64,000 nucleotides of DNA from Candidatus Elulimicrobiales bacterium (GTDB taxonomy: Bacteria > Patescibacteriota > Minisyncoccia > Phycocordibacterales > UBA5272), in NCBI GenBank assembly GCA_034927475.1, contig JAYFPW010000006.1, positions 9,197 through 73,196 of the forward strand, given 5' to 3'. The position numbers and the translations under genes are program-made. A model generated the notes under the pieces. It ran no database searches and had not been told where the DNA came from. It was given only the letters and a program-made list of their open reading frames with translations. Positions 3,631-21,143 of this stretch are shown piece after piece. Numbering within the stretch: position 1 is the stretch's first letter; every line of letters begins with the position of its first letter.

Positions 3631-4752
3631 TTACTTATTAAGAGGCATTAAAAGGTATGTAAAACTTTCATCTTTTGCGTCTTTTATAAACATTGGCCTA
3701 TTTCCTTGTGTAAAAAGTAATTCTACTTCGTCACTTACAATATGAGAAATACCGTCTAAGAAATAATTACTGTTATAGCTAGCTAAAATATTTTCACCAG
3801 TCATTTCGTTTGGAACAATATCTTTATCCAAAGCTCCAATTTTGTCATTTTTAGACTTTGTTTTAATAACTTTCTCTTCAGTGTTTATATCAAAATCTAC
3901 ATAAGAATAATTATTAACAAAAATAGTAGATAAATTAAGGGTGTTTCTTAATTCTTGCTTATCAACTTTAATTTTTGTAGTCCATTCTTTAGGAAAGAGT
4001 TGTTTATAATCTGGAAAATTTCCGTTGATTGATCTAATAGATAAAGTTGTATTGTTATTTTGAATGGTTAAAATATTTTCACTGTTATAGATCTCTATTT
4101 CACTTTCTTCTTCCTCATTTTCTTCTTGTAAACTTTCAAGAATAGAAACTTTTTCATTAATATTTTTCTGTGAAATTAAAATATTAATATCTTCACTATT
4201 ATTAAAAACTATTTTCTTCTCTGCTAACCTAAAAGAGTCAGTTGCTACAGAAAAAAGTTCTTCATTTTTAGAGTATAAATAAACCGATGAAATCTCTGGT
4301 TTAATTTCAGAAGTAGAAGCGCAAAAAGAAACTGATTTTATAAGGTTTATATAAGTTTTTAAATTAATATTTGTTAAATAATTTCCAGAATTAGGCATTT
4401 TTGGAAAGTCTTCTAGTTTAGTAGTTTTAAGTTGAACTTTATTTTTTAAATATAAAATATTAAAAACGTCATCAACTAGTTCACAAGTAATATTGGTATC
4501 AATATTTGAAAAATAATTTGAAATTTTTGTTAAAACATCTCCATTAATTAAACACTCTCCATTTACAACACCTTTCATAGGAATAGTTTTTTCACAAGTA
4601 AGTTCAAGGTTTGTAGCACGCATAGTCAAACTGTTATTTTCACTTTTAATATAAATATTATTTAAATAAGAGTTTAAAGTACTTTTATTTCTAGCTTTAC
4701 TAACTTGATTAATAATTTTAAAAAGTTTAATGGAGTTGATTTCAAATTTCAT
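3631..4752 (-). CDS. dnaN: DNA polymerase III beta sliding clamp
   Basis: 373 aa. N-terminus is MKFEINSIKLFKIINQVSKA...ATNLELT (typical DnaN). It has a three-domain length and sits directly downstream of dnaA. Confidence 0.85.
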   Translation of the reverse strand: MKFEINSIKLFKIINQVSKARNKSTLNSYLNNIYIKSENNSLTMRATNLELTCEKTIPMKGVVNGECLINGDVLTKISNYFSNIDTNITCELVDDVFNILYLKNKVQLKTTKLEDFPKMPNSGNYLTNINLKTYINLIKSVSFCASTSEIKPEISSVYLYSKNEELFSVATDSFRLAEKKIVFNNSEDINILISQKNINEKVSILESLQEENEEEESEIEIYNSENILTIQNNNTTLSIRSINGNFPDYKQLFPKEWTTKIKVDKQELRNTLNLSTIFVNNYSYVDFDINTEEKVIKTKSKNDKIGALDKDIVPNEMTGENILASYNSNYFLDGISHIVSDEVELLFTQGNRPMFIKDAKDESFTYLLMPLNK

Positions 4753-5089: not shown

Positions 5090-6436
5090 TTATTTTAGAA
5101 TGTTATAAATTTCTTCTATTTCTTTATTTAAATAAGGATCCTCTTTTCTTTCTTTTTTAATTTTTTCGTAAGAGTGAATTACAGTGGTATGATCTTTTCC
5201 TCCAAGCTTTTCCCCTATTGTTGGATAAGAAACATCGAAATATTCTCTTAAAATATACATAATTACTTGTCTAGGTTTAACAATATCTTTTCTTCTAGTT
5301 TTATTGTAAATAAAAGAAGCGTGAATATTGTAGTATTCAGAAACAATTTTTACCACCTCAGAAATAGAAACTGATTTTTTAGAACGAACATTATTTTTAA
5401 TAAGATTTTTAATACTTTGTAAAGTAACTTTTTGATCAAAAAGTTCTATTTGAGCTTGTATAAAGTTGATAATTCCTTCTAACTCTCTAATGTTTCCGCT
5501 AATATTTTCAGCCACATATTCTATAACCCCTTCTTCTACTTTTTCTCTATTTTTAATTTTAGATCTTAGAATATTAATTCTAGATTCATAATCCGGAACC
5601 CCAATATCCACAATCATTCCTTGATTAAAACGAGATTTAAGTCTGTCTTCTAGTCCCACAATAAAGTTTGGATGTTTATCAGAAGAGAAGATAATTTGTT
5701 TATTATCATTATGAAGACTGTTAAATAAATGAAAGAGTTCGTCTTGAGTTTTTTCTTTCCCATTAATAAATTGAATATCATCCATTATAAAAACGTCGTA
5801 TTTTTTATACTTTTCTTTAAAATTATTAATTTTTTGACTATTTATAGCGGAAACAAATTCTAAATAATATTTTTCAAGAGAAGTATAAAAGACTTTTTTA
5901 TCAGGATAGTTATTTTTGACAGTGTTTCCGATAGCCTGAATTAAGTGTGTTTTTCCTAGGCCTGTATTTCCATAAATAAATAAAGGGTTATAAACAATAC
6001 CAGGGTTTTTTATAATAGCCTGAGAAGCTGCATGAGCTAATTCATTAAAACTTCCAACAACAAAGTTGTTAAAAGTGTATTTTTGATTTAAGCCGTCATC
6101 TTTGTTTATGTAAAGATCTTGAAGAGGAAGAGAACTGGTTGGCTCTATAATCTTGTTTTTCGCTTGCACAGCCTTCTTTTGAAGGGTTTCTAATTTTACA
6201 GTATGAAAATCTACCCCTCTCACATCTTCATGTATTTCTCTTAAAACTCTTAATATAAATTTATGATGTTTTTGAAGAAGCCACTCTTTAACAAAATCAT
6301 TTGGAACCCCTATTATTACAATACCGTCTTTATAATTAATAATTTGAGTGTTTCTAAACCAAGTGTTGAAATTTACACGTGACAATTCTAATTCTATTCT
6401 CGATAATGCCATGTCCCAAATTTGCTTGTAATCCAT
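5090..6436 (-). CDS. dnaA: Chromosomal replication initiator protein DnaA
   Basis: Walker A GNTGLGKTHL, AAA+ core, and a C-terminal DNA-binding domain (VSYPTIGEKLGGKDHTTVIHSYEKI). Confidence 0.95.
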   Translation of the reverse strand: MDYKQIWDMALSRIELELSRVNFNTWFRNTQIINYKDGIVIIGVPNDFVKEWLLQKHHKFILRVLREIHEDVRGVDFHTVKLETLQKKAVQAKNKIIEPTSSLPLQDLYINKDDGLNQKYTFNNFVVGSFNELAHAASQAIIKNPGIVYNPLFIYGNTGLGKTHLIQAIGNTVKNNYPDKKVFYTSLEKYYLEFVSAINSQKINNFKEKYKKYDVFIMDDIQFINGKEKTQDELFHLFNSLHNDNKQIIFSSDKHPNFIVGLEDRLKSRFNQGMIVDIGVPDYESRINILRSKIKNREKVEEGVIEYVAENISGNIRELEGIINFIQAQIELFDQKVTLQSIKNLIKNNVRSKKSVSISEVVKIVSEYYNIHASFIYNKTRRKDIVKPRQVIMYILREYFDVSYPTIGEKLGGKDHTTVIHSYEKIKKERKEDPYLNKEIEEIYNILK

Positions 6437-7968: not shown

Positions 7969-9384
7969 TTAATCTCCTCCAGAATATAATATATTATCTA
8001 TGTTTAAAGTCCAAAGAGAACCGTCATTTTTATTTATAAAACCAAGATGGGATTTATAGGAGTTTATATTTAAATTTTTAGCATCAATAATATCTTCAAC
8101 TTGACCGTCTTTTTTAATATCAAACAAAAGTTTTCCATTTGGATAATCACTACTCATTACATAGAAATTGTCTTCCCAAGTGGTCATACCTTGATACCAA
8201 GCATCAGGTAAACCAGTATCATAGTTAATAATTTCTTTTGGTACAGAGCAAATTAAAAGTTGACCATTTGAGGCATTATTTTGTACACATTTATTAGCTA
8301 AAGTTGTGAAATTTAATGAAACTAAATCGTTGTCAGTGAAAGGTGTACTATTAAAGGTTGTGTTTTTATAAAGCTTTATCCCGGAGCCTGTAAAAATAGA
8401 TGTCAATAAATTATTGTTTTCTATTAAAAAGAACATTCCATTATGGTCTCCGTAAAGTTGAGAAAGGTCACCTAAAATATTTTTATGGATATTTACTTTA
8501 TAGAGCGTGTTATTTTCATATGCTGTATCAGTTGTTTGAGCAAAAAGATCACCAATATTAGAAAGAATTAATTTCCAAGAAGAAAGATCGGAGCTATAAA
8601 CTCTTCTACCATAAGAGTCATTTACGTCTTCTAATAAATACCAGTCTGTATAAGTATCGTCCTTTCCGCCAGTTTTTTTATTTTTTTGAACTATATAAGC
8701 TAAACGTGTATTGTTTTGAGAAGTTGTAATATTTTTTATATTATCCGGAAGAGTTGAAGAGTTCATTAAATTCGCAGTAGAGCCATAATATGTAGGTATT
8801 GTAGCACTCACAGTTTTTATTGTATTATCAGCATTTAAATATTGGAAAAATACTCTATTTTTATAACCTCCTTTTTCATTCATAAAGTAAGCTTTTACTG
8901 TATTTGGAAAAGGGGTAATCGTTACTTGATATGGACTAGAAGTTGGAGCAAGTAAATCTTTTTCATAAACAAAACCAGTTTCACTATCAACAAATTGCAG
9001 AATAGTTTTTGTAGAAGTGGCGTCTTGCTCGATACCGTCGATATCGATATATTTATAAGTAAACAGCTTATCATAAAAATTGTACCCAGCCACAGGTTTA
9101 TCCCAAATTTTTATTAAACCCTCAAAATAATAATCATGAGCAATATTTTCATCAAGATTGTTTCCGTCTGTGTCATCCCCCTTATTGTCACCAGTAAAAA
9201 AACTCAAAAGATTTTTAAAATTAAAAGCTGGTTTACCAGATAAGTCTTGCATGTTTTGAGAAGAATTTGTTTTATTTCTTAAAAAAAGAAAATAAAATAG
9301 TGAACCAAAAACGAAGATAGCAATAATAACGATAACTATTTCTTTTTTATATTTTTTAAAAAATGATTGTTTTTTAGGTTCCAT
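7969..9384 (-). CDS. Membrane-anchored extracellular protein (last gene of T4SS-like operon)
   Basis: 471 aa. It has an N-terminal TM (IVIVIIAIFVFGSLFYFLFL) followed by a large N/T/S-rich ectodomain. It is 4 bp from the upstream gene. Confidence 0.5.
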   Translation of the reverse strand: MEPKKQSFFKKYKKEIVIVIIAIFVFGSLFYFLFLRNKTNSSQNMQDLSGKPAFNFKNLLSFFTGDNKGDDTDGNNLDENIAHDYYFEGLIKIWDKPVAGYNFYDKLFTYKYIDIDGIEQDATSTKTILQFVDSETGFVYEKDLLAPTSSPYQVTITPFPNTVKAYFMNEKGGYKNRVFFQYLNADNTIKTVSATIPTYYGSTANLMNSSTLPDNIKNITTSQNNTRLAYIVQKNKKTGGKDDTYTDWYLLEDVNDSYGRRVYSSDLSSWKLILSNIGDLFAQTTDTAYENNTLYKVNIHKNILGDLSQLYGDHNGMFFLIENNNLLTSIFTGSGIKLYKNTTFNSTPFTDNDLVSLNFTTLANKCVQNNASNGQLLICSVPKEIINYDTGLPDAWYQGMTTWEDNFYVMSSDYPNGKLLFDIKKDGQVEDIIDAKNLNINSYKSHLGFINKNDGSLWTLNIDNILYSGGD

Positions 9385-9388
9385 AAGG

Positions 9389-10888
9389 CTATTTTCCAGT
9401 TAGTGACCAATGAACATTATCAGTTGTTCCTAGTTTATTATAAAAACCCCATCTACCACCATTTTCTTTAAGCCATAAAAATTCTTTTGTATTACAAGCT
9501 CCCACCTTTCCGCAACCTCCTATACTTGCATTTGTTAGATCTATCGCGGTACCATTTGAATGATTCGAACCGTTTCCGCCCATACTACAAGGTGTAGCCA
9601 CAGCACTCTTTCCTTTCATTTGATTATATAAACAAACTTGGGCGGCATCATCTCTATATCCAACATAAGCTTCTAATTTTATATTGGCCTCTGACAATGC
9701 AGCTGCTTGCATTTCTTTAAATTTTTGAGCAACGTCTTTTCTTAAATAGATTGGTCCAGCGGGAACACAACCACCATCTCTTTTTGTACCAACTTGTTCT
9801 AATTGATCATTTGTTAAGGCTACACAACCACCTTTACCACCATTGCTTGAAAAAAGCGACATACTTTCTGCTAATTCTTTCTGATATTCCACACAATATT
9901 GTGGAGCTGCTAAATTTGCTAAACGAGAACATCTTCCACCAACCTGACCACAATATCTACTATCCACAATTTCTCTAGCTACTCCCATATAATCTCCCAC
10001 ATCTAAGGCTTTTTTAAGATTTACAAAGCTAGATATACCACCAGACCCCATATTAAAAGTCATATTAATTAAAACGTTTTGGATATTTTCAGGGTGTTCA
10101 CTGAATCTTGATTGTCCTCCAGCAAAAGCTATAGCCATTTGTTTATGTGACTCAAAATCAGCCTCTAAAAGCTTTTTAATGTGCCTTTCTTCAATGGTTA
10201 CAGTTCTGTCGTAATTAAGAAGTTTGTTTACAGTATCCTCAGGTATTTCAGCTCTAAGTAAGTCGTTTTTAACAGTAGCCGCATCCGCTCTTTTTAAATT
10301 AAAACCAACTCCAATACTAGGGTTTCCTGTCGTGTCTGTGTAGATACTATTTCTGCTACCTTCGTCCTGCATGAGCATATCCATAATATTATTTGGACTT
10401 TTATATTTATCATTAGGATTACAAGTTTCAGTGTTAGGAGACATTCTTCTTAATGCGGTATTTGCGTATTTTGTCGCCAAGGTCCAACCTGTTAATTTAG
10501 GGTTGATAAAAGATAAAATCGCATAAGAGAAAATAAAAATTATTAAAGCTATTCCTGCATTTTGTATAAAACTCCTACCTTTTGTTTGTTGATAAATATT
10601 ATCTAAAGTTCCTTTTATAACAGCTCCTTGTATTACACGAAAAACAATTAAAACTATAATAACTACAGCCAAAATAGTTAAAAGATAATTCATTGTACTA
10701 GAAATTCCTCCTGTGTCAGTGTTGTCAAAGGTGGTAGAACTAGATGTACCATCAAAAGAAGAAACATAGTCATAGGTTTCCTGTCTAGAATAAACATCGG
10801 TTTGGTCCTGGCTTTGATTTTGAGAAAAAGAAATATTAAAAGAAAAGAGTGTAAAAATCAAAAAGAAAAAAACAAAAAACTTTTTCAT
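9389..10888 (-). CDS. Bifunctional cell-wall hydrolase: GH24 (T4-type) lysozyme domain + M15/VanY-type D-Ala-D-Ala peptidase domain; VirB1/PrgK-like role
   Basis: Signal peptide plus TM helices. The MLMQDEGSRNSIYTDTTGNPSIGVGF motif matches the T4 lysozyme catalytic E...D...T motif, and VLINMTFNMGSGGISSF matches ALINMVFQMGETGVAGF. The C-terminus has the SNHSNGTAIDL (SxHxxGxAxD) and ...VHW motifs of zinc D,D-carboxypeptidases. Confidence 0.7.
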   Translation of the reverse strand: MKKFFVFFFLIFTLFSFNISFSQNQSQDQTDVYSRQETYDYVSSFDGTSSSTTFDNTDTGGISSTMNYLLTILAVVIIVLIVFRVIQGAVIKGTLDNIYQQTKGRSFIQNAGIALIIFIFSYAILSFINPKLTGWTLATKYANTALRRMSPNTETCNPNDKYKSPNNIMDMLMQDEGSRNSIYTDTTGNPSIGVGFNLKRADAATVKNDLLRAEIPEDTVNKLLNYDRTVTIEERHIKKLLEADFESHKQMAIAFAGGQSRFSEHPENIQNVLINMTFNMGSGGISSFVNLKKALDVGDYMGVAREIVDSRYCGQVGGRCSRLANLAAPQYCVEYQKELAESMSLFSSNGGKGGCVALTNDQLEQVGTKRDGGCVPAGPIYLRKDVAQKFKEMQAAALSEANIKLEAYVGYRDDAAQVCLYNQMKGKSAVATPCSMGGNGSNHSNGTAIDLTNASIGGCGKVGACNTKEFLWLKENGGRWGFYNKLGTTDNVHWSLTGK

Positions 10889-10917
10889 ATATGACTATAT
10901 TTTAACACAAGAATAAG

Positions 10918-11688
10918 CTAATTTTGCTTCAATAGAAAATTTAAAAGAGTTTCCCCTTTTTGTAAAAGTTTAGAATCGTTAGTTATTGTTAAACCTATAC
11001 CAAAATCTCCATAAGCTGTCACTGGTGCTCTATAATCAAAAACATTGGAGCGGTTTATGTTGCCAGGAATACCATTTAAAGACCATGTATAGCTTAAATT
11101 TTCATCTCTAGGAGATTTGGCTGAGAAGAAATATGGTTCTGCTAAAATCTCAAGAGACTCACCTCTATTAACCGCATAATGTTCATATTTTTTATTTAAA
11201 GCGTTGGAGTAAGTAATAATAGGGCTAGAGCTTTTTTTATACAAAATAGGTGTAATTTTTTTAGGATAAATTCTAATAATTTTCTCAGCTAGAAGATTTT
11301 CTTGTCTATTATTTTCATAAACTTTTAACCTGATAACATTCTCAGTTTTTAAAGGATCAAGAGTAATATAAATAATATTTCCTCCAGTTTTTGAATAGTT
11401 GTGCACATAATAGTCATTATATGTCCAAGCGTAAAAGAGTTTACTTTTATCCAAAACTCCAACAGGGGTAAAAATTTCTGCGTCAGCAATAGCTTTTATA
11501 TCGGCTTGTTCAGCTGCCAAACTCTTACCTTCATAAAAAGGAGGTGTATAACTATTTAAAACTTCCCAATCTATAGTGACTTTAGAAGAGATAGTATATA
11601 CCTGTGCTTTTATTATTGAAAAAGTGGCTATAAATAAGAAAGTAAATACTAAAAACAAAAAAGAGAAATATCTTTTATTTTTTTTCAT
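10918..11688 (-). CDS. Secreted hypothetical protein (T4SS-like operon)
   Basis: 256 aa with an N-terminal signal/anchor (FSFLFLVFTFLFIATFSIIKA). It is co-operonic. Confidence 0.5.
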   Translation of the reverse strand: MKKNKRYFSFLFLVFTFLFIATFSIIKAQVYTISSKVTIDWEVLNSYTPPFYEGKSLAAEQADIKAIADAEIFTPVGVLDKSKLFYAWTYNDYYVHNYSKTGGNIIYITLDPLKTENVIRLKVYENNRQENLLAEKIIRIYPKKITPILYKKSSSPIITYSNALNKKYEHYAVNRGESLEILAEPYFFSAKSPRDENLSYTWSLNGIPGNINRSNVFDYRAPVTAYGDFGIGLTITNDSKLLQKGETLLNFLLKQN

Positions 11689-11707: not shown

Positions 11708-13540
11708 TTATGCGGCCCGTTGTCTTTTTTTCTTAGCTTCCAAAAGCTGTGCCGGATTAGTTGTAACTATTTGATCTTCAACATAAGAAGAAATAACTTT
11801 TATAGCCACATGTTTTTGCCCAGCAAAGAATATTCCTTCCCCTACTCCAGAACTAAGTAATAAATACTTTTCTTCATCTGTAAGATTAAAAGTTTTTTGG
11901 ACCAGATCTATACTAGAAGGAGATTGTTTTAAAAGTAAAAGCATACTTGAGTTAGTAATAATAGGTAAACCGTAAGCTGAACGCAAAAAGTCTCCTACGT
12001 CTTGAGAAATTACAGACAAACCTAAATAATATTTTCTTCCCCTTTTTGCCATTCCAAACAAAAAGGATGCAGTGTCTTCATTTTTCATCATTATCCAAGC
12101 CTCGTCTATAATTAAAAGCCTTTTCTTTAACTCTTTTCTAATCTCTCCCCAAATATAATGAGTAATAATATACATAGCGACAGGCTTAAGCTCATCCTCC
12201 ATGTCACGAATAGAAAAACAGATTAATTTTTTATTAATATCAATATTAGAAGGTTGCCCAATAAATCCTGACCAGACCCCTTCTGTATATTTAGAAAGTC
12301 TTTGTAAAACACTTTCAGATCCCTCAATACCAGAAAGTACTTCAGCAAAATCTCCTAAGACAGGAAATTCTATACCATCTAAACTTTCGGTTGCCGAGGT
12401 TATATCTTTTATCGCATAAGTTTCTGTTAAAGCTCTATCGACAATAGAATCCTCTTCAGGAGTAAGTCCGCCAAGCATTACTCGCATGAGCCCTACCAAG
12501 TGAATAATATTACTTCTCAAAACATCACCAACAGATTCATCTTCTCCGGGTATTGCTAAATCGAAAGGATTAATGTGATGATCTGAATTTAAAGATATAT
12601 TAAAATATCTACCACCAACAGATTCCGCTAAATATTCATACTCTCTTTCAGGGTCGATGATAATAACATTGGTATCAAACATTAAAGTACGTAAAATTTC
12701 AAGTTTTGTGTAATAAGATTTACCAGATCCAGAAGTAGCAAAAACCATACTGTTGTAGTTCTCAAGAGAAAATCTATCAAATAAAATTAAAGAGCCATTA
12801 TGTCTATTTAAACCATATAAAATACCACTATTTGTTGAAAGGTCGAAAGAAAGAAATGGAAAGAAAGAAGAAAGTGGAGAAGTATTTAGCTGAGTAGTGA
12901 TTTTTATTTCATCTACACAAAAAGGCATTATAGTTTTTAAAGCTTCAGCTTGCTGAAAGAGAGCTGGTCTTAAATAAATAAGCTTACTTTCTAAAATATT
13001 TTTAATTTCAGTTTCTACTTTTTTTAATTCATCATCGGTATCTCCAAAAATCGTAATATAAAGACCAACTTCAAACATCTTTTCACTGGATTGTTGAAGA
13101 GAGTCTCTCAAGTCTTCCAGGTCTCTTAAAGCTGTTTCTAATTTTGGATCACGAACTTCACCTTTTTCTTGCTTTACATAAATTTGACTCTCTATTTCTA
13201 CCACTTTCTTTTGAAATTTTTTCATCATTTCAGCTGTAGCTAAAGGGGTGATATGAATAGAAACATTAAAAATTTTGTCTAGATTAATAATTGGGGCCAA
13301 CCAAGAATCATCTAAATATCTAGGATAAGATATAACAAAAAAACTTTTAGCTAATTTTCCAGAAAGATTTAATTGTTGTGCGTCGACTTTTAAGCCGGCT
13401 GGAGCTATAAAATTTTTCAATTCTGAACTAGCCTCATCATAAACTTCTTCTTTAGAAGGTTCTTCATTTAAATTTTGTTTATTATTTTTTGAAAAAATAT
13501 CTAAAATACCCATAGCTTTATAATTTTTTTGTATTAACAT
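11708..13540 (-). CDS. virB4: VirB4/TrbE/CagE-family T4SS ATPase (C-terminal ATPase part)
   Basis: Walker A FATSGSGKSYY, Walker B LLIIDEAWIMM, and the motif GRKYYLGLSVISQDVGDF. Confidence 0.85.
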   Translation of the reverse strand: MLIQKNYKAMGILDIFSKNNKQNLNEEPSKEEVYDEASSELKNFIAPAGLKVDAQQLNLSGKLAKSFFVISYPRYLDDSWLAPIINLDKIFNVSIHITPLATAEMMKKFQKKVVEIESQIYVKQEKGEVRDPKLETALRDLEDLRDSLQQSSEKMFEVGLYITIFGDTDDELKKVETEIKNILESKLIYLRPALFQQAEALKTIMPFCVDEIKITTQLNTSPLSSFFPFLSFDLSTNSGILYGLNRHNGSLILFDRFSLENYNSMVFATSGSGKSYYTKLEILRTLMFDTNVIIIDPEREYEYLAESVGGRYFNISLNSDHHINPFDLAIPGEDESVGDVLRSNIIHLVGLMRVMLGGLTPEEDSIVDRALTETYAIKDITSATESLDGIEFPVLGDFAEVLSGIEGSESVLQRLSKYTEGVWSGFIGQPSNIDINKKLICFSIRDMEDELKPVAMYIITHYIWGEIRKELKKRLLIIDEAWIMMKNEDTASFLFGMAKRGRKYYLGLSVISQDVGDFLRSAYGLPIITNSSMLLLLKQSPSSIDLVQKTFNLTDEEKYLLLSSGVGEGIFFAGQKHVAIKVISSYVEDQIVTTNPAQLLEAKKKRQRAA

Positions 13541-14105
13541 CTAACTCATTTGGATTAAATAATTTATAAAATAGTCCAACAATTTCTTCCGTGTCTATCA
13601 GTTTTAATTTTAATCCTAAAGCGGTAAGTCCGCTAACCACAATAGAAACTCTTTGCATTAATTGATTTTCATTTTTTATAAAATCCATTTCATTCATTCT
13701 TTTTGTATTTCCAACAAGTGTTGGAATATCATAAGGAACAACTATGTAAAAATTTTTCGTCATAATATTTTGTTCCTCAGTAAATTTTTGTATAAAATCC
13801 GTATATTCTTTTATTTGAATCTTTAAAAGCTCTTCAGAAGCCTCTCTTTCCCTCTCCTTTAAACTTTTTATATAATCACGAATGTCAATTTTTTTAGATT
13901 GAACAAAAATTTGAACATTAAAATCCAAAGAGTTTAAAAAGCTTTGAAAAGCGGTAATAATTCCCATTTGTTCATCCTCACTTTTTAAAGACAAGTTTAA
14001 AGAAGTGGTCGAAAGAATAGCTCTCATGTTGCCACTATTTAAAATAATCACCCCGCTTCTAATTTCTCTAATTGGGACAAAATTTTGAGAAGAGTTTTTT
14101 GCCAT
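13518..14105 (-). CDS. VirB4 N-terminal domain encoded as a separate ORF (overlaps ATPase ORF by 23 nt, different frame)
   Basis: 195 aa resembling the N-terminal region of VirB4/TraC proteins (IPIREIRSGVIILNSG..., SLKSEDEQ...FQSFLNSL). Together with 11708-13540 it sums to ~800 aa, the normal VirB4 length. Confidence 0.55.
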   Translation of the reverse strand: MAKNSSQNFVPIREIRSGVIILNSGNMRAILSTTSLNLSLKSEDEQMGIITAFQSFLNSLDFNVQIFVQSKKIDIRDYIKSLKEREREASEELLKIQIKEYTDFIQKFTEEQNIMTKNFYIVVPYDIPTLVGNTKRMNEMDFIKNENQLMQRVSIVVSGLTALGLKLKLIDTEEIVGLFYKLFNPNELDVNTKKL

Positions 14106-14134
14106 GCTTCTATTATAGCATCAGAAAATAGATA

Positions 14135-14614
14135 CTAAGAATTTTTTGTCTGATTTCTTTTAATAAGTTCTTCTCTTAAATTGACAGCGTGTTTTTTATC
14201 TTCGTCTAAAATATCTAATTTTCCAGACAACTCTCTAATTTTATCAAAAGGACTTTTTTCTTCCTCAATTTTATTTTTCTTTAAAAGATCGATAGCTCTT
14301 AAGTCTTTTTTAGGCTCTTCTTTTTCGATTTTTTTCTCTTGATACCAAACATAAGTTTTGTTTCCAATTAAAAATTTATAAGCTGATTCTAAAATGTCAG
14401 CAAAAGGTCTATTATTTATTTTGACAAAAGCTAGAGCCACAAAAGTTCCAGAAAAAATAAGAATTAAAGGCACAGCTATAATTTTTGCAGGAATAATTCT
14501 CCAAAAAAGATATCCAAAAGCTATAGCCCCCAACAGATACCCAAATTGTTTGAGAGTAAAAGGACCAAAAATCTTATCTTCAATGTCCAAGAATTGAGGA
14601 AGTCTAAATTGCAT
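14135..14614 (-). CDS. PrgI-family / VirB3-like small membrane protein
   Basis: 159 aa with LPQFLDIEDKIFGPFTLKQFGYLLG followed by two TM helices. It sits immediately upstream of VirB4, as in Gram-positive T4SS. Confidence 0.55.
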   Translation of the reverse strand: MQFRLPQFLDIEDKIFGPFTLKQFGYLLGAIAFGYLFWRIIPAKIIAVPLILIFSGTFVALAFVKINNRPFADILESAYKFLIGNKTYVWYQEKKIEKEEPKKDLRAIDLLKKNKIEEEKSPFDKIRELSGKLDILDEDKKHAVNLREELIKRNQTKNS

Positions 14615-14644: not shown

Positions 14645-15781
14645 CTAAAAAGCTTCTCTATAGGGATCAAAATTTTCATCAACACTTTCTGGAATCTCTT
14701 CAGACAAAGTACTTTTATAATAGTCATTATTTTTAGCTTTTTGAATTTCTATCTCCTCTTTCTCTCTTTGTTGTCTTAAGGTATCTAAATTTGTTTTCTC
14801 ATCCTCATTTGCAGACAGCTTCTCTTTTAAGTTTTCGACAAGTATTTGACTGAAATCTTCATTTTTGAGAGCTAAAGGATTTTCTTCTGGATATTCTAAT
14901 TCTTCTTCAATTTCCTTTCTCTTAGTCTCCTCTTCTTTTTCTTTGTTTCTTATTTCAGCAACCCTTTCTTCCTCTCTTTTTTCTTTAGCTAAAACTCTTT
15001 GCATTCTTTCATCTTCCTCTCTTTTAATTTGAATCATTCTTTCTTTTATTTTATCCGTATCAGACACATTCTGCATATTTATTTTTGCCAACAAAGAATC
15101 TCTATTCATTTCTTGAACCTTTTTTTCTTCTTCTTTCTTTTTTTCTTCCTCTTTAATAAGCTCTTGTTCAGTCTTCTCTCTTTCTTTATACTGAATTAGA
15201 GGTTCCCCTTTGCCAGTTATAGTACCAGTTCTTTGTAGAAGAATTTTTCTTAGCTCTTCTTTTTCAGCTTCTTCCCTTTTTTCTTTTAAAGTAAGATGTC
15301 TTATTTCTCTTTTGTTTTCAAGTTTACTTTCTAAAATATTTTTACGAATATCAGTAAGAATATAAGTGTCTATACTTTTCAAAATCGAACTTGCTGTAAA
15401 AGATTCCAGCATGATACCGCTAGAGCTAAAACTTTCAACCAGAGTTTCTTTGGCTTCATTAATAGGAAGAAGCCCAACTAAAATTGAAACAGCAATATTT
15501 TCAACAATAACTCTCGCTTTTTCTCCTTCTAATTTTTCTATTTTGCAAATCAAGCGAACACTCTCTTCAAGCTTGTCTCCTAAAATATAGTCTTGTATCA
15601 CTTTTGAAGAATTTGAAAAAGCGGTATCAAATTGAGTAAGGACAATATTTTCATTTTTTTGTGGAGGTTTTTCAGGTTCCTTTTCAGGATTTAAAAAATC
15701 ATAGTCAAAGTCAGCCTCCGTTTCATTTAAAGAATAATCGCCCTCTTTTAGTTCTAAAGCTAATTTATTTTCTTCCGACAT
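14645..15781 (-). CDS. Glu/Lys-rich coiled-coil protein (T4SS-like operon)
   Basis: 378 aa, acidic N-terminus and a long charged coiled-coil region. No catalytic motifs. Confidence 0.5.
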   Translation of the reverse strand: MSEENKLALELKEGDYSLNETEADFDYDFLNPEKEPEKPPQKNENIVLTQFDTAFSNSSKVIQDYILGDKLEESVRLICKIEKLEGEKARVIVENIAVSILVGLLPINEAKETLVESFSSSGIMLESFTASSILKSIDTYILTDIRKNILESKLENKREIRHLTLKEKREEAEKEELRKILLQRTGTITGKGEPLIQYKEREKTEQELIKEEEKKKEEEKKVQEMNRDSLLAKINMQNVSDTDKIKERMIQIKREEDERMQRVLAKEKREEERVAEIRNKEKEEETKRKEIEEELEYPEENPLALKNEDFSQILVENLKEKLSANEDEKTNLDTLRQQREKEEIEIQKAKNNDYYKSTLSEEIPESVDENFDPYREAF

Positions 15782-15815
15782 AAAATAATTATATCAAATA
15801 AATTAGGTTTTTTAA

Positions 15816-18659
15816 TTAAGAGGCGTTTTTTAGAGGTTCCTCAGGTGTCATATTTTTAGTTTTTGTATTAGTATTTTCTCCAGTTTTTTCTCGTAAGTGT
15901 TCAATAATTCTTTTTTTACTTGCAAAATTTGCTTGCTTAAATTCATCTCCAAACTGTTGCTCATTATTGTCTAGTATTTCCCTTACAGTATTACTTTGAA
16001 TAGTTTTTGGAGCTTCTGCTGTACTTTTTGTGCCACCACGATTTACTACGACAACTTCAGGTTTGCTAGAAGTTTTTTTCTCTTTAATATCAGAGCTCTC
16101 TTTTTTTTCTTTTCCCAGTTTTGATTTTCTCTCCAATCTCTCCCTTTCTCTTTCAGATACTCTAAAGTCTGCTAAAACTTTGGAAAGGCTCATATAGGCT
16201 TCTCTCGGATTGAGTTCTTTTAATGCATTTAAGAATTCAGTTTTTAATTTTTCGTTTTCAGGTTTTTCTAGATTTTGTGAAAAATAGTTCTCTCCTTTAC
16301 CTTCTTTTAGAAATTCTTTATCTATAGAAGCTTTTATCTCTTCTTCTTTGTTTTTCATACTCTCAGCACCTGTGCCAGGGTTATCTTTAAAAGTTTGATT
16401 AACATCCTGGAGGAGGTTTTGGGATTTTTTATCTCCAAATAAATCTTTTTCTAATTCCCCTTTCCTCTTTTCTGAATTTCCTAGTACAGTATTCCAGTGC
16501 TTTTTATCAGACTCAGAAATATCTTTTTCGCTTAATTTTTTTCTAGCATAAGCTATATCAGACTGAACTGTACGCAACTCCGATTTCTTTTGTACATTTT
16601 CTTCCAAAGCTTGTTTGTTAGGATTTTTCTTTCCAATATTTCTTGCGTCAAACGAAGAGGTGCTTAATGTCCTGTCAAGCTGACGTCCTCCAGCGGCTAA
16701 TATTTGATTTACACGCTTAGTTCCATCTTCATTTTTTCTTATCCAACCTTGGAATTTGTCCGAATTTGATACAGCTGTAGCTCCACGTCTCATAACAGCC
16801 CCCGTGGTACCAAGTGCAAAATTACCTACAAAGCCACCTACTTTTCCAGCGACTTGACCACCAAGATCAGAACTCATTTTTTTAGAAACTGTAATAGCTA
16901 ATTGTAAAACTACTATAATAATTGCGGAAGCCACACTAGCCCCCATAAAAGTATTTCCTGCTTCACCAGCTCCAGCCATACCAGTAGAAAGTGAATTTAA
17001 TTGAGGATTATTTTGTAAAGAATCTCTAATGGCAGCACCTATTTGTAAAGCTATCAAAACTATAAACATAAAAATCGGAGCAGAGATTACAGAAGTGGTA
17101 AAGCTTTTAATTACCATGTCTCTATATTTATCAATATATTCATTTATACCAGCAGGTAAAAGCATTAATGGAGAAAAAATTAAAACTAGAAGTAAAATTA
17201 TGGCTCGCATAAGTAGTAGAACCATACCTTGAACCAACACGAGAACAGCTACACCATTAATAACTATTTTTATGGCTTGGAATAAAGTAAAACCCCAATC
17301 AGCTCTAGCTGCTCCCAAAGATCTAGTATCGATAGCTAAAACATCAGCCAAAGCATCACCCAAAGTTTCTCCAGGATTATGCATACTTCTATAAATATAA
17401 ATAGAAAGAACGTTTGTTTGATCTATAATCCAGCCAACAATAGCAAAAGAGAAATATACAAATAGAGCTGTAATTAAAATTCTTGGAAGTATTTTTTTAA
17501 TTTTAGAAGTGTCATTATCAATAAGCATTCTAATAAGCATGTAAAACACTATAGGCAGAAGTAGGGATGTTACTAAAGATAAAATAACATTCCTCCAAAC
17601 TAAATAAGCATTTGAATTAACTACCCAGTCATTAAAATTGTAAATACTAAAACGGACAACCCAGTCAAAAATTCCACCAACAAGTTTTGTTAGTCCTTGT
17701 AGTAAAGAATTTATTCCTTCTAAAACTAGATTTACTAAATAAGCCGCAACAGAACAGTTTGGACTTTGCATAACACCCCAAAGACCTGTCGCCTCACAAA
17801 CAGTTGGGGTTTCGTAAGATTCCACCATAACTTCCCCTGAAGGGTTAGTTATAGGACTAGAGGGATTAGTTTTAGGTCCCCCACTAGTTTCTGTTGGGAC
17901 AAAAAAGGTTTCTCCTTTATAAGGAAACTCTGCACCAGTTTTTTCGGCGTCGCTCAAAGTCTTTTTATCTTCACCTCCCAACCAATTCCAACCAGAAGGA
18001 TTTTCGGTTTGATTTTTTATTTCATTTGCAATATCTTTAATACCTTGAGGTATTTTTTCTAACTCTAACACAGTCCGGCCTTCTGTAAGAAAGTCATTAA
18101 TTTCTCTATATATATAGATACGCATTAATTTTGCTGAAGCCCCATCAACATCACCCTCAACAAAGTTATTGGAGACAGCCGAATTTTTCATTTTATTATA
18201 AATAGATAAATAGCTATTGTTGTGAATAGTTTTTGCCTGGTCAAATATCTCTAATAAATATTTTTTAGCCTCAGGGTAAGACGTGGAATCTACAGCATCT
18301 AATTGGTTTTTATATCCAGTAAATAATGAGTCGTATTTAGAAGAGTTATCTGTCTCATTTTTTTTAATTTTCTCTTCAACTTGATTTTGAATAGAAAGAA
18401 GATCTGATGATGGTATTGGTATGTAATCAGTAGAGTATGAGCCAGCACCAAAACTTCCACCTGGAATATATGTGCTTTCTACTTTATAAGATGTTGTTGC
18501 CGTCATCAAAACAGACGTGTCTTTATTGTCTAACTTTATTCCAACAACTATTTTGGCTTCCGTGTTTTTTATACCTAAACTAAAAAATCCTAGAACTATA
18601 AATAAAATAATTCCAAGTGTTTTTGTGGAGAAAATAGAAGAAAACTTTTTCCTTTTCAT
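15816..18659 (-). CDS. VirB6/TrbL-like polytopic membrane protein with large N-terminal ectodomain and charged C-terminal extension
   Basis: 947 aa. It has a signal/TM, a ~400 aa extracellular region, a central block of >=6 TM helices (VILSLVTSLLLPIVFYMLIRML ... AIILLLVLIFSPLMLLPAG ...), and a K/E-rich ~300 aa tail. Confidence 0.5.
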   Translation of the reverse strand: MKRKKFSSIFSTKTLGIILFIVLGFFSLGIKNTEAKIVVGIKLDNKDTSVLMTATTSYKVESTYIPGGSFGAGSYSTDYIPIPSSDLLSIQNQVEEKIKKNETDNSSKYDSLFTGYKNQLDAVDSTSYPEAKKYLLEIFDQAKTIHNNSYLSIYNKMKNSAVSNNFVEGDVDGASAKLMRIYIYREINDFLTEGRTVLELEKIPQGIKDIANEIKNQTENPSGWNWLGGEDKKTLSDAEKTGAEFPYKGETFFVPTETSGGPKTNPSSPITNPSGEVMVESYETPTVCEATGLWGVMQSPNCSVAAYLVNLVLEGINSLLQGLTKLVGGIFDWVVRFSIYNFNDWVVNSNAYLVWRNVILSLVTSLLLPIVFYMLIRMLIDNDTSKIKKILPRILITALFVYFSFAIVGWIIDQTNVLSIYIYRSMHNPGETLGDALADVLAIDTRSLGAARADWGFTLFQAIKIVINGVAVLVLVQGMVLLLMRAIILLLVLIFSPLMLLPAGINEYIDKYRDMVIKSFTTSVISAPIFMFIVLIALQIGAAIRDSLQNNPQLNSLSTGMAGAGEAGNTFMGASVASAIIIVVLQLAITVSKKMSSDLGGQVAGKVGGFVGNFALGTTGAVMRRGATAVSNSDKFQGWIRKNEDGTKRVNQILAAGGRQLDRTLSTSSFDARNIGKKNPNKQALEENVQKKSELRTVQSDIAYARKKLSEKDISESDKKHWNTVLGNSEKRKGELEKDLFGDKKSQNLLQDVNQTFKDNPGTGAESMKNKEEEIKASIDKEFLKEGKGENYFSQNLEKPENEKLKTEFLNALKELNPREAYMSLSKVLADFRVSERERERLERKSKLGKEKKESSDIKEKKTSSKPEVVVVNRGGTKSTAEAPKTIQSNTVREILDNNEQQFGDEFKQANFASKKRIIEHLREKTGENTNTKTKNMTPEEPLKNAS

Positions 18660-18680
18660 TTATTTATTTTATCATAAATA

Positions 18681-18718
18681 AAAAACAAAAAGCGGAAAAT
18701 TCCGCTTTTTGTTTTTTA
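18681..18718. terminator. Symmetric hairpin flanked by A/T runs inside the T4SS-like operon
   Basis: AAAAGCGGAAAATTCCGCTTTTT lies between the 803-aa gene and the VirB6-like gene. It could terminate or attenuate in either direction. Confidence 0.5.
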
Positions 18719-18731
18719 AAAGAAAGCAATA

Positions 18732-21143
18732 TTATTCAGCTGCACACTCTTTAATTGCTGAGGTTATTGCGGCTTGAATAGAAGTTTCGTCTTTACAGTG
18801 ATTTCTAAGTTCAAGGTCGTCAGTATTAGCTGACTGGGCACAAATATTTCTGATTGAAATTTCCGGAGATATACAAGGGTCTGGCTGGCCTTCTAGTGGA
18901 TCTGGAATTGGTTCATTATAATCTTTCAAGGAATCAGTAAGTATTTGTAGTTCTGCATTATTACAAATACCAATCTTTAGTTGGTTACAATAAGACAGTT
19001 CAGAAAAAGTTTTTGAGCTGCTAGAGTCTATCACAGCAGTATTTTTTGCGGAAGGTCTTGGTAAATTTGGATCCAAATACTCTAGATTTTTAATACCATA
19101 AGCTGAAAACATTCCTGTATCTTTTGCTGGAATTGTTGAAGGAGATCCCGCCTTTAAAGAATCTCTTAACATTAAGTATGCCCTAACTCTTAAGTACCCT
19201 AAAACGTGTTTTGTATAAGGTCCTTCCACTTCTCTTCTTGATGGAACATAATAGGAAGCGTCTTCTTCTATTGCTGCAACAGGGTCAGAAGTTAGTTCGG
19301 AGTATTCTGGAATATATTGCCAATCGGAGATAAGATATTCATAATCTTTTTCTGTATAAGCCCCATCCAAAGCTTGCGCTAAAGCTTCTTGATTATTTTG
19401 CGTATCAACATCTTTTGTGTCTCTTAAATCCATTAAAAGTTTTCTCATTTGTTGTTCGCGATAATTATTTTTTGCCATTTCTTTGATGAGATCTCTTGTT
19501 TCCATTGTTTGATTTACCAAAGCTACAGTTAATTTTTTTGCAGCGTCCGTCTTATTTGTAGCAGATTTTCGAATATTTTTACTTTTTCTAGGATAGAAAA
19601 TACTTTTCCAAAAACCTACATTCATAGCATCCTGTTGAGCATTTACGACGGCTGTTTTAGCTCTTTCTACAGAAGTTTTTAATACTAAGTAAGTATATGA
19701 ATTAGTGTTTAACCTTTCAGTATTTACTATTCTTATATTTTCATAAATATCTAAAGCTCTTTGCAAGTCATCTGAAGAATATTTTTCTGAACCAAAAGCA
19801 TACTCTCTTGAAGCTTCTTCTGTGCTAACCCAAAGAAGATTTTGAGTGTCTTGGGTTTTTTGTAAAGCACCTAGAGATGTTGCTAGTCCACTATAAGGGT
19901 TGTCATAAGGATTATTTGTCACGGCATAAATATCTTTTCTACCAACATTTATTATTGAGGAGATTAAGTTCATTGTATCAGCAGCGCCAGTAAGATCTCC
20001 ATTTTTTAATTTATTATGAATAGAGTCTAGTCTGGCTTTTATACTATCGTAAGGTGCGTTTGCAGCAGCGGAAACTTTTTCTTGCAAAACAGCACCACTT
20101 CCTTGAGCTGTAGAGGTTTGTTGAGAGCAGAATTGTGTAGCGTCTTCAGGGTTAAATTTTACCTCTTTACCATCTTTATCTACACATTTTTGGTCCCCTA
20201 AAAACATTCCTGTAGCTTCAGTTTGTTTTGATGTAGCGTCAACGACTTTATCTTTTTGGGCTAAAATATTAGAGATAGCTAAGTTAACAACCCCTGAAGG
20301 TGTGTTAGCTGGATTAGCAAGAGCTTCACTGGTTCTTGGTCCTCCATAGCCAGCGTTAGCTAAACCAATAAATACAGCTTGAGCTCTAGCGGCTTCTTTT
20401 TGTGGTTTTTGTAAACTAGTATTACATAATTTATCTATATCTACATCACCAACTGCTTTTTTTGGGCGAGCAAAAGTTTCTGGTTCTCCATTTTTTATTA
20501 TATTTTTTAATTCAGGACTATTACAAATTTCATCTTTTACTATATAAGGCAAACTAAAGTTTACGACTTTTCCTAAAGCTGTATCTGAAGTATTTTTTGT
20601 AAAATCAGCAATGTCTTTATAGATGTCTGCTGTGTATGGAGTCGTGTTTACCGTAAGTTGTATATTAGATAGACCCTTTTTAATTTCATTTACAGAAATC
20701 ATGTCTAAATAATTTCCAAAATTAGTTACAACTTGCTGACCTTGTGTATAAATGTTTGTAGCCTGATCTCTGGTTATTCCTAAATTAGTCATAACTGCAT
20801 CGCCGACACGATTAAGGACATCGCTAGAAGCATTTTTTGCAAAAGTCTCTGCGTCAAAATTTTTTATTCCTTGCACAAGTTGTTTTGCCGCTAAAGTGTT
20901 TTGGTAAATAACCATACTGTCATTTATAAGCTCTTTAGCTTGAACAGCTTTATCTGCTATCCATTTTGCTGTATCTTGACCAAAAATAGCCCCGAGTATT
21001 ACATCTCCAGTATCTCCTACACCTAAAAAAGCAGAAGCTTTTTTAGGTAATAAGCTAGGAGTCAAAAACGAAAAAATTAAAATCAGAGCCAATATTTTTT
21101 TAGAAATTTGTTTTATATTTATCATATTTTTATTTTTAGTCAT
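18732..21143 (-). CDS. Large secreted protein (candidate surface/pilus-associated component of T4SS-like system)
   Basis: 803 aa with a signal peptide (ILALILIFSFLTPSLLPKKASA) and a Cys-rich C-terminal ~80 aa. No enzymatic motif. Confidence 0.5.
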   Translation of the reverse strand: MTKNKNMINIKQISKKILALILIFSFLTPSLLPKKASAFLGVGDTGDVILGAIFGQDTAKWIADKAVQAKELINDSMVIYQNTLAAKQLVQGIKNFDAETFAKNASSDVLNRVGDAVMTNLGITRDQATNIYTQGQQVVTNFGNYLDMISVNEIKKGLSNIQLTVNTTPYTADIYKDIADFTKNTSDTALGKVVNFSLPYIVKDEICNSPELKNIIKNGEPETFARPKKAVGDVDIDKLCNTSLQKPQKEAARAQAVFIGLANAGYGGPRTSEALANPANTPSGVVNLAISNILAQKDKVVDATSKQTEATGMFLGDQKCVDKDGKEVKFNPEDATQFCSQQTSTAQGSGAVLQEKVSAAANAPYDSIKARLDSIHNKLKNGDLTGAADTMNLISSIINVGRKDIYAVTNNPYDNPYSGLATSLGALQKTQDTQNLLWVSTEEASREYAFGSEKYSSDDLQRALDIYENIRIVNTERLNTNSYTYLVLKTSVERAKTAVVNAQQDAMNVGFWKSIFYPRKSKNIRKSATNKTDAAKKLTVALVNQTMETRDLIKEMAKNNYREQQMRKLLMDLRDTKDVDTQNNQEALAQALDGAYTEKDYEYLISDWQYIPEYSELTSDPVAAIEEDASYYVPSRREVEGPYTKHVLGYLRVRAYLMLRDSLKAGSPSTIPAKDTGMFSAYGIKNLEYLDPNLPRPSAKNTAVIDSSSSKTFSELSYCNQLKIGICNNAELQILTDSLKDYNEPIPDPLEGQPDPCISPEISIRNICAQSANTDDLELRNHCKDETSIQAAITSAIKECAAE

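Follow-up and report, generated by a model that had tools for sequence, protein, structure and literature searches.

The TrsD-like and VirB4 genes and their surroundings

The window, the whole 64,000-nt stretch of DNA that was analyzed, comes from a genome that NCBI assigns to Candidatus Elulimicrobiales and contains two adjoining open reading frames on the minus strand. The ORF listing returned exactly the pair described in the first-pass annotation, 13518..14105 (195 aa; ORF1) and 11708..13540 (610 aa; ORF2), with the 610-aa reading in the +1 frame relative to the 195-aa ORF and a 23-nt overlap between them. The junction reads ...AAT ACA AAA AAA TTA TAA agct ATG GGT.... When 78 related loci were aligned, the N-terminal stretch that is conserved in the downstream protein (M-G/S-I/L-L/F-D...) coincided with the second ATG of ORF2, at 13513, and the NCBI annotation of the identical ORF2 protein is 601 aa long. 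The alignment thus indicates that the true start of ORF2 is this second ATG, which leaves a 4-nt gap after the ORF1 stop and no overlap. The 23-nt overlap is an artifact, since ORF2 had been extended to its most upstream ATG under the longest-ORF rule. Because the real start is 13513, the overlap and the change of frame, which had been put forward as a feature of the locus, carry no significance.

With the start corrected, the upstream gene is a TrsD-like gene (13518..14105, minus strand, 195 aa) and encodes, as a detached piece, the first subdomain of VirB4's N-terminal domain. The downstream gene is a VirB4-family ATPase gene (11708..13513, minus strand, 601 aa from the conserved second ATG); compared with a full-length VirB4, its product is short of the first ~175 positions. 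The spacer agct (13514..13517, 4 nt, minus strand) lies between the ORF1 TAA (13518-13520) and the ORF2 ATG (13511-13513). The sole homopolymer at the junction is a run of seven A (13524..13530, minus strand) in the last codons of ORF1, and this run is superfluous for explaining the split.

Directly upstream of the TrsD-like gene is a gene for a PrgI-family (VirB3-like) membrane protein (14135..14614, minus strand; Pfam PrgI, E 6.6e-11, 43 bits versus a 27-bit cut-off). It is preceded on the same strand by genes for a Glu/Lys-rich 378-aa protein (14645-15781) and a 947-aa protein (15816-18659); neither ORF had a Pfam or NCBIfam match, and both were assigned to the T4SS (type IV secretion system) cluster by position only. 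Three further cluster genes lie downstream on the minus strand (7969..11688), predicted as ORFs encoding proteins of 256, 499, and 471 aa. The 499-aa protein (9389-10888) is a cell-wall hydrolase by its Pfam Phage_lysozyme and VanY domains, consistent with a VirB1-like role. The VirB4 gene is therefore accompanied by both a PrgI-family gene and a cell-wall hydrolase gene, as in a T4SS cluster.

Also on the minus strand are dnaA (5090-6436; Pfam Bac_DnaA, DnaA_N, and Bac_DnaA_C) and dnaN (3631-4752; Pfam DNA_pol3_beta domains 1-3), which mark the region of the replication origin, ~1.5 kb from the T4SS cluster. A domain match identified ksgA (RrnaAD) at 22091-22876. No relaxase domain was found among the scanned ORFs, which were part of the window's ORFs. 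The locus has the features of the Patescibacteria clade of T4SS, namely VirB4, a TrsD-like protein, a PrgI/VirB3 protein, a chromosomal position near dnaA and ksgA, and no relaxase among the ORFs scanned.

Domain content of the two products

Residues 7-187 of ORF1 matched positions 2-171 of the 752-position CD1110 VirB4 profile (NCBIfam NF045971), in agreement with the first-pass impression that the 195-aa ORF resembles the VirB4 N-terminal domain. Residues 27-571 of ORF2 matched positions 182-734 of the same profile (380.1 bits versus a 325-bit cut-off, E 2e-113). A second NCBIfam profile, that of the Mycoplasma VirB4, was covered by ORF1 from 101 to 285 and by ORF2 from 276 to 892. The summed length of the two proteins (195 + 601 = 796 aa) compares with 775-807 aa for fused homologues, and the earlier statement that the two add up to a canonical VirB4 was upheld. 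These profile matches indicate that the two products are colinear with the single-chain VirB4 families and together make up one full-length VirB4.

ORF2 is an ATPase of the VirB4/TraC type, scoring above the curated model cut-off and carrying both Walker motifs in a RecA-like C-terminal domain. Pfam matches were P-loop_TraG, AAA_10, DUF87, and TraC_F_IV, the last over its positions 297-374, which map onto residues 130-208 of the 610-aa reading. By phmmer, residues 226-584 aligned to chain residues 6-388 of PDB 4AG5, a VirB4 C-terminal domain (E 1.5e-38), and this alignment places the ATPase domain at 11762..12838 on the minus strand. Walker A (ATSGSGKSY, 12713..12739, minus strand) and Walker B (RLLIIDEAW, 12095..12121, minus strand) were read off the translation and are in the downstream ORF, where they had been said to be. 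The TraC_F_IV match and the start of the 4AG5 alignment assign residues 1-225 of the 601-aa protein (12839..13513, minus strand) to the N-terminal domain of VirB4, as its second half. The N-terminal domain is not complete on this polypeptide, in that profile positions 1 to ~181 are missing from ORF2; these are the positions found in ORF1 (2-171). The pair had been described as an N-domain plus an ATPase, a description that has to be revised: by these matches, the cut bisects the N-terminal domain, away from the boundary between N-domain and ATPase, and the 601-aa protein keeps ~225 residues of the N-domain. The break itself falls in a variable linker behind a conserved ...FNP.E motif.

A sequence search of ORF1 against PDB chains returned nothing meaningful (best E 0.25), and the link between ORF1 and VirB4 came solely through fold comparison and profile searches. 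A structural model of the concatenated pair, built with the alignment of fused homologues, confirmed a VirB4 fold but gave no confident packing of the ORF1 domain against the rest (pTM 0.55).

ORF1 also matched the TrsD/TraD profile NF041427 along its whole length, from position 19 to 200 of 201 (E 3.3e-9), at a score of 36.8 bits that is far under the curated 200-bit cut-off. The match of the ORF1 family to the single TrsD sequence of pGO1 was weak by hhalign (probability 7%, E 0.005), and likeness to TrsD was judged by the NCBIfam profile rather than by this comparison. Because of the low profile score and the weak hhalign match, ORF1 is better described as a remote homologue of TrsD/TraD than as a strict member of the family, which it is not at the curated cut-off. 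Its placement is that of a TrsD, the gene for this separate protein of ~200 aa being flanked by those for PrgI and VirB4, and it has the homology to the N-terminal portion of VirB4 that characterizes TrsD. TrsD is absent from the main text of Guglielmini et al. 2014 (PMC4027160).

Conservation of the two-gene arrangement

Homologues of ORF1 numbered 3298, and the best 120 were 192-232 aa long apart from two shorter fragments. The best 120 homologues of ORF2 were mostly 595-617 aa. ORF2 was 68-95% identical across the homologues listed, with Walker A and B intact. Clustering at 50% identity gave 2342 clusters, and just 2 of the top 150 exceeded 700 aa. Relatives of ORF1 were stand-alone proteins from 100% down to ~35% identity, and at least 589 species genomes contained one. 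An alignment of 48 ORF1 sequences, down to 50% identity, had 37 invariant columns and a mean column identity of 63%.

The first-pass annotation had proposed looking for the same split in orthologues, and it was there: in 78 of the 80 loci examined the two genes could be located, each as its own ORF. In these relatives a stop closes the upstream gene, and the new start of the downstream gene can lie in any of three frames, the relative frame being 0, 1, or 2 in 16, 34, and 28 of the 78 loci, respectively; the 16 in-frame pairs are parted by a stop alone. The spacer was -4 nt (an ATGA overlap) in 6 loci, 1-10 nt in 49, 11-50 nt in 10, and more than 50 nt in 13, with a maximum of ~496 nt, so that 55 of the 78 loci had a spacer of 10 nt or less, the 6 ATGA overlaps included. 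Neither a shared junction sequence nor a conserved slippery site was found among the 78 loci. Comparison of the loci indicates that the split is genuine and that hundreds of species have kept the arrangement while frame and spacer varied freely.

A fused VirB4 of 775-807 aa was found in more than 115 clusters, mostly labelled Ca. Colwellbacteria. In a neighbor-joining tree, the fused forms made up a monophyletic clade whose sister was the split clade. Fission and fusion were not polarized by this simple tree, in which the clades were reciprocally monophyletic and the root was a very distant outgroup (pGO1). Two proteins of ~600 aa inside the fused clade resembled recent re-splits. As a re-split in that clade, P0411 was rejected on account of a run of N in the scaffold inside the gene.

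The order of genes is the same as in trsC-trsD-trsE of the Staphylococcus aureus plasmid pGO1, the MPF_FATA prototype, where a VirB3-like protein is followed by TrsD (227 aa) and a DUF87 ATPase (672 aa). TrsE residues 58-617 aligned with ORF2 residues 56-573 (E 2e-33, 24% identity), with the N-termini in register. After the VirB4-type ATPase, pGO1 encodes a membrane protein and then a CHAP-domain cell-wall hydrolase, in a place equivalent to that of the 499-aa hydrolase here. The two loci differ in that pGO1 is a conjugative plasmid with a relaxase and a coupling protein, whereas the locus here is chromosomal and no relaxase was found among the scanned ORFs. Megaplasmids of Bacillus thuringiensis, Brevibacillus, and Paenibacillus have the order PrgI, hypothetical protein, DUF87 ATPase, identical to that in the window. 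Relatives of ORF1, 26-33% identical to it across more than 90% of its length, were found in 311 plasmids, and residues 22-645 of the VirB4 of the Bt407 plasmid aligned with ORF2 residues 14-592 (E 2e-75, 28% identity), again with the N-termini in register. The megaplasmid proteins are longer (~330 aa, with a C-terminal extension and annotated as hypothetical, and 635-661 aa), and their T4SS context differs. Judged from these alignments, both the cut point and the gene order (PrgI/VirB3-like, TrsD-like, VirB4) are common to pGO1 and the Bacillus and Brevibacillus megaplasmids. The split had been offered as a hint of a lineage habit of domain fission; it is instead an inherited T4SS architecture shared with these plasmids.

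Single-chain VirB4, TraC, and TrwK proteins (R388 TrwK, PDB 7O41, 7O42, and 8RTB; the CD1110 family; fused Colwellbacteria proteins) have the same domain content and order as the pair. TrwK has 823 aa, close to the 796 aa here and to the fused Patescibacteria proteins. The difference from the single-chain proteins is that the polypeptide here is interrupted past the first ~175 positions of the N-terminal domain.

The two-gene VirB4 is already known. Quinonero-Coronel et al. (Microb Genom 2025; PMC12102498) counted 2,272 homologues of TrsD in Patescibacteria, found 1,664 of these beside virB4, and noted a T4SS cluster close to dnaA and ksgA. They described TrsD as remotely homologous to the VirB4 N-terminus and assigned it no function, and they reported that the TrsD homologue and virB4 are essential in Ca. 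Southlakia epibionticum. The locus shares with that system, as far as it is described there, the phylum, a TrsD-like gene directly upstream of virB4, a PrgI/VirB3-like neighbor, and a chromosomal position beside dnaA and ksgA with no relaxase among the genes scanned here, and no essential difference from that description emerged. Text searches of the article found that it does not spell out that the partner VirB4 is without the TrsD-like portion, so that the pair equals one VirB4, nor that the N-domain is cut midway, within a linker, nor the fused clade of Colwellbacteria. The pair is neither an error nor a new discovery, because its layout is conserved across hundreds of relatives and in some Bacillus plasmids and has already been published.

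Interpretation of the pair and proposed mechanism

We consider it highly likely that ORF1 is a TrsD-like protein corresponding to the first ~175 positions of VirB4, and that ORF2, from 13513, comprises the rest of the N-domain and the Walker A/B ATPase. The first-pass annotation had left four options, a genuine split, a sequencing or assembly frameshift, a programmed frameshift, and decay, and only the first stood up to the comparative data. Since the split is conserved with frame and spacer variable, the other three were excluded.

A different alternative is that the 195-aa protein descends from a VirB4 N-terminus and is now an independent accessory factor, a regulator or adaptor with its own stoichiometry, and not a stable piece of the protomer. 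TrsD homologues of Gracilibacteria are reported not to be adjacent to virB4 (PMC12102498), the 13 loci with long spacers and the lack of confident packing in the concatenated model point the same way, and many relatives have variable C-terminal extensions that bring them to 250-440 aa (~330 aa in Bacillales plasmids). We nevertheless regard this alternative as unlikely. ORF2 is without exactly the region that ORF1 supplies, with no duplication and with contiguous profile coverage (171, then 182). A whole clade tolerates covalent fusion with a short linker, and therefore the two parts would be adjacent in the working protein. The tight stop-start spacing in 55 of the 78 loci also argues against independence.

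Very improbable is the production of a fused VirB4, besides or instead of the two products, by programmed +1 ribosomal frameshifting or by slippage of transcription on the A run. Upstream of the conserved ATG, 9 more codons of the ORF2 frame are open, and they overlap the end of ORF1, which includes AAA AAA, although by our own estimate nine open codons would arise by chance about half the time at ~30% GC. No slippery site, overlap, or frame relation of the kind conserved in prfB or dnaX was conserved here; 16 loci are in frame and separated by a stop only, and many have spacers from 10 to about 500 nt. A run of seven A is also shorter than the tracts known to give appreciable transcriptional slippage.

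We give next to no credence to a sequencing or assembly indel in the A run that breaks a single virB4 of ~800 aa: the run is at the junction, removal of one A joins the frames, and a fused form of ~797 aa occurs in another clade, but records of the identical 195-aa protein exist for 8 contigs that come from several sources, so that the ORF1 stop is unlikely to be a quirk of a single assembly, the same stop is present in all relatives examined, near and remote, the separate ORFs of the 78 loci occur in all three frames, and a conserved N-terminal motif starts at the ATG behind the stop. Equally negligible is a decaying virB4 pseudogene; Patescibacteria genomes are small and reduced and decay usually shows up as a long gene that is broken, yet both parts are strongly conserved (invariant columns in ORF1, Walker motifs in ORF2), the surrounding T4SS cluster is whole and intact, the arrangement is common to the species genomes counted above, orthologues showed neither relaxed selection (dN/dS near 1) nor frequent internal stops, and both genes are reported essential in Ca. 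S. epibionticum (PMC12102498). Relatives that stand alone and a break confined to a variable linker are not what a pseudogene or an assembly error would give.

On the sequence comparisons, the best reading of TrsD is that it makes up the initial segment that the VirB4 N-terminal domain is missing: what one protein lacks is exactly what the other supplies, pGO1 and the Bacillus megaplasmids are cut at the same point, and in a sister clade the parts are fused. The two polypeptides would join without a covalent bond to form a protomer like that of VirB4, with the TrsD-like piece as its membrane-proximal part, the equivalent of which sits with VirB3 in the inner-membrane complex of the R388 structure. 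For a secretion system that Patescibacteria reportedly need to grow on their hosts, this reading offers a specific hypothesis on TrsD that can be tested.

An extended -10-like box, TGCTATAAT (14112..14120, minus strand), ends 6 nt upstream of the ORF1 ATG and is a candidate promoter for a leaderless mRNA. TANAAT ending 4-10 nt before the ATG was found at 14 of 45 long ORFs, compared to 2.6% of random positions. In front of ORF2 there was neither a -10-like promoter box nor a Shine-Dalgarno sequence. A model based only on these motifs is that ORF1 may be transcribed as a leaderless mRNA from its own -10 box and that ORF2, 4 nt behind the stop, may be translated by coupling to ORF1. Such coupling would tie the amounts of the two VirB4 halves together. 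It cannot be universal, because 13 of the 78 relatives have spacers of more than 50 nt. A literature search on leaderless translation in CPR gave nothing directly relevant.

A more speculative and rather doubtful possibility is that the cut is a functional hinge rather than a neutral variation in gene structure, with a detachable TrsD-like module, expressed from its own leaderless promoter and with the ATPase translationally coupled to it, gating the time and place at which VirB4 hexamers dock on PrgI/VirB3 in the membrane. If so, the clean division between a split clade and the fused clade of Colwellbacteria would represent two ways of regulating a T4SS that the epibiotic lifestyle requires.

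For annotation, pseudogene finders and genome scans will flag the junction as a frameshifted virB4; it should be neither repaired nor called a pseudogene. ComEC is also encoded by two ORFs here, as had been reported, with the Competence domain on one ORF and the metallo-beta-lactamase domain on the other.

Two reading frames and one VirB4

The six-frame ORF list placed ORF1 (195 aa) at 13518..14105 and the longest reading of ORF2 (610 aa) at 11708..13540, both on the minus strand. Under this longest-ORF reading, the two overlapped by 23 nt, with ORF2 in the +1 frame relative to ORF1. When read instead from its second ATG at 13513 (MGILDIF...), ORF2 had 601 aa and followed the ORF1 stop after a 4-nt spacer. 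The junction sequence was ...AAT ACA AAA AAA TTA TAA agct ATG GGT ATT TTA GAT..., with an A7 run at 13524-13530 of the minus strand; GC of the window was approximately 30%. Judged from the junction comparison across 78 related loci, the second ATG at 13513 is the true start of ORF2. The first-pass annotation of VirB4 as two overlapping ORFs was therefore exact for both ORFs but not for the overlap, which is an artefact that the longest-ORF convention produces. Walker A (ATSGSGKSY) and Walker B (RLLIIDEAW) were both present in the translation of ORF2, as had been proposed.

In Pfam, ORF2 matched P-loop_TraG, AAA_10, and DUF87, as well as the TraC_F_IV N-domain model at its C-terminal end (297-374 of 375), while ORF1 weakly matched the front part of TraC_F_IV (positions 40-173). 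ORF1 residues 7-187 corresponded to positions 2-171 of the 752-position CD1110-family VirB4 model (NCBIfam), and ORF2 residues 27-571 (second-ATG numbering) corresponded to positions 182-734 (380 bits; cut-off 325). Likewise, the Mycoplasma ICE VirB4 model was divided into 101-285 for ORF1 and 276-892 for ORF2. The match of ORF1 to the TrsD/TraD family model also ran along the whole of that model (positions 19-200 of 201; E 3.3e-9), with a score of 36.8 bits that is far under the strict cut-off of 200 for that model. Structure 4AG5, the VirB4 C-terminal domain, was matched by ORF2 from residue 226 on (E 1.5e-38). Because of these profile and structure matches, ORF1 and ORF2 together amount to one VirB4, in agreement with the suggestions that the 195-aa ORF resembles the N-domain and that the two ORFs sum to a full protein. 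However, alignment to the model did not place the junction at a domain boundary. The cut, as mapped on the model between positions 171 and 182, bisects the VirB4 N-terminal domain and does not separate it from the ATPase. The C-terminal end of ORF1 is variable past a conserved FNP.E motif; therefore, the cut sits in a linker.

Conservation of the split and fused relatives

Database homologues of ORF1 numbered 3298, and the best 120 of these (to approximately 50% identity) were 192-232 aa long except for fragments of 125 and 150 aa. The best 120 homologues of ORF2 were mostly 595-617 aa, and a protein identical to ORF2, from a Candidatus Elulimicrobiales MAG, was annotated by NCBI as 601 aa. 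Searching the 50%-identity representatives exhaustively gave 2342 clusters, and among the best 150 just 2 exceeded 700 aa. When each species was represented by one genome, at least 589 genomes carried a relative. For the 80 best of these loci we analyzed the junction, and both genes were located in 78. The upstream gene terminated at a stop in all 78, and the downstream ATG opened a conserved M-(G/S)-(I/L/F)-(L/F)-(D/S) motif. The relative frame of the gene pair was 0, 1, or 2 in 16, 34, and 28 loci, respectively. Six loci had an ATGA overlap, 49 had spacers of 1-10 nt, 10 had spacers of 11-50 nt, and 13 had spacers of 53-496 nt.

These results bear on each scenario raised for the split. A genuine split into separate genes is what the loci show. 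A programmed frameshift is excluded by the use of all three frames and by the variable spacers, and transcriptional slippage is excluded since frame and spacing are free while both proteins are conserved. The same free variation rules out a sequencing indel, and gene decay is excluded by conservation of both proteins. The split VirB4 arrangement has been described before and is both conserved and functional.

The two long matches among the 50%-identity clusters led to a single-chain family. A search with one such protein, P0337, gave best 120 matches that were all 775-807 aa with both domain sets, except two entries of approximately 600 aa. At 90% identity, the family (P0337, P0393-P0511) formed over 115 clusters, and its named members were mostly Candidatus Colwellbacteria. 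A short variable linker joins the TrsD-like and ORF2-like parts, and the fused protein was colinear with TrwK (residue 451 aligned to TrwK residue 445). P0411, a 600-aa entry within the fused clade, was rejected as a split VirB4 because a run of N (1545-1647 of its scaffold, L082) interrupts the gene, making it an assembly artefact; the N-terminal part was readable upstream. On the L082 contig, T4SS genes adjoin rnpA, yidC, and dnaA. Fused and split sequences formed two clean sister clades in a simple neighbour-joining tree, and one fusion or fission event would suffice for the sampled sequences.

Proposed assembly and expression

The ORF1 and ORF2 polypeptides would most likely come together again as a VirB4-like protomer, because the region absent in one is exactly what the other supplies and because a whole clade tolerates covalent fusion via a short linker. 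The VirB4 N-domain is said, from work of Mace and colleagues in 2022, to contact VirB3. The titles of R388 structures 8RTB and 7O41 (PDB) place VirB4 with VirB3 in the inner-membrane complex, and the genes, ordered PrgI - TrsD-like - VirB4, fit this placement.

No Shine-Dalgarno sequence was found before any T4SS cluster gene. A TGnTAnAAT box, resembling an extended -10 element, ended 6-7 nt before the ATG of several cluster genes, including ORF1 (14112-14120 in the sequence). Such boxes were also observed upstream of starts 15781, 14614, 11688, 18659, 22876, 38223, 30837, 31910, and 56234. Of the 45 window ORFs with 150 aa or more, 14 had a TANAAT ending 4-10 nt ahead of the ATG (in 9 of them the distance was exactly 6 nt), compared to 2.6% of random positions. 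This pattern suggests that leaderless mRNAs may be widespread in this organism. There was no such box in front of ORF2 (start 13513), which, together with its start 4 nt past the ORF1 stop, suggests that translation of ORF2 could be coupled to that of ORF1. Coupling cannot be universal, since 13 of the 78 relatives have long spacers. Another boxless gene, of 471 aa (start 9384), likewise begins 4 nt after the preceding stop.

Comparable systems and genomic setting

The order on S. aureus pGO1 is trsC (small), trsD (227 aa), the 672-aa DUF87 ATPase TrsE, a membrane protein, and a CHAP hydrolase. The corresponding order in the window is a PrgI/VirB3-like gene (14135-14614, minus strand), ORF1, ORF2, a 256-aa protein, and a 499-aa lysozyme+VanY hydrolase. 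The N-termini of ORF2 and TrsE were in register (ORF2 residue 56 to TrsE residue 58; 24% identity, E 2e-33). A tblastn search of plasmids with ORF1 gave 311 matching records, of which 283 were Bacillus; identity was 26-33% among the matches listed. Megaplasmids of Brevibacillus (CP139434.1) and B. thuringiensis Bt407 (NC_018878.1) carry, in this order, PrgI, an ORF1-like protein (approximately 330 aa), and a DUF87 ATPase that is also in register with ORF2 at the N-terminus (28% identity, E 2e-75). The ORF1-like protein is annotated on both only as a hypothetical protein, and a plasmid-borne clpX lies a few kb upstream of each triplet.

Quinonero-Coronel et al. surveyed Patescibacteria T4SS in 2025 (PMC12102498). 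Their survey lists the TrsD homologue among the essentials of Ca. Southlakia epibionticum and describes clusters without relaxases, often close to dnaA and ksgA. The window matches this picture of a T4SS often at the replication origin: ksgA (22091-22876) is just past one end of the cluster, and dnaA (5090-6436) and dnaN (3631-4752) are approximately 1.5 kb from the other. The split VirB4 here is therefore a typical instance of the published arrangement. Three points are added by the present analysis and were not found in text searches of PMC12102498: that the two proteins are exactly complementary, that the cut falls in a mid-N-domain linker common to pGO1 and Bacillus plasmids, and that a fused Colwellbacteria clade exists.

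The 803-aa, 947-aa, and Glu/Lys-rich 378-aa proteins (14645-21143, minus strand) matched nothing in Pfam or NCBIfam at the thresholds applied; by position, they are candidate VirB6-like or other T4SS envelope components. ComEC is also split, as first noted, into a 518-aa ORF with the Competence membrane domain (56773-58329) and a 327-aa ORF with the metallo-beta-lactamase domain (58347-59330), both on the plus strand, in different frames, with 17 A-rich nt between them. A tyrosine recombinase (Phage_integrase with a SAM-like N-domain; 30837-31874, plus strand) was found among housekeeping genes, adjoining an NYN-domain protein and an Exo_endo_phos nuclease, and may represent either XerC/D or the integrase of a mobile element.
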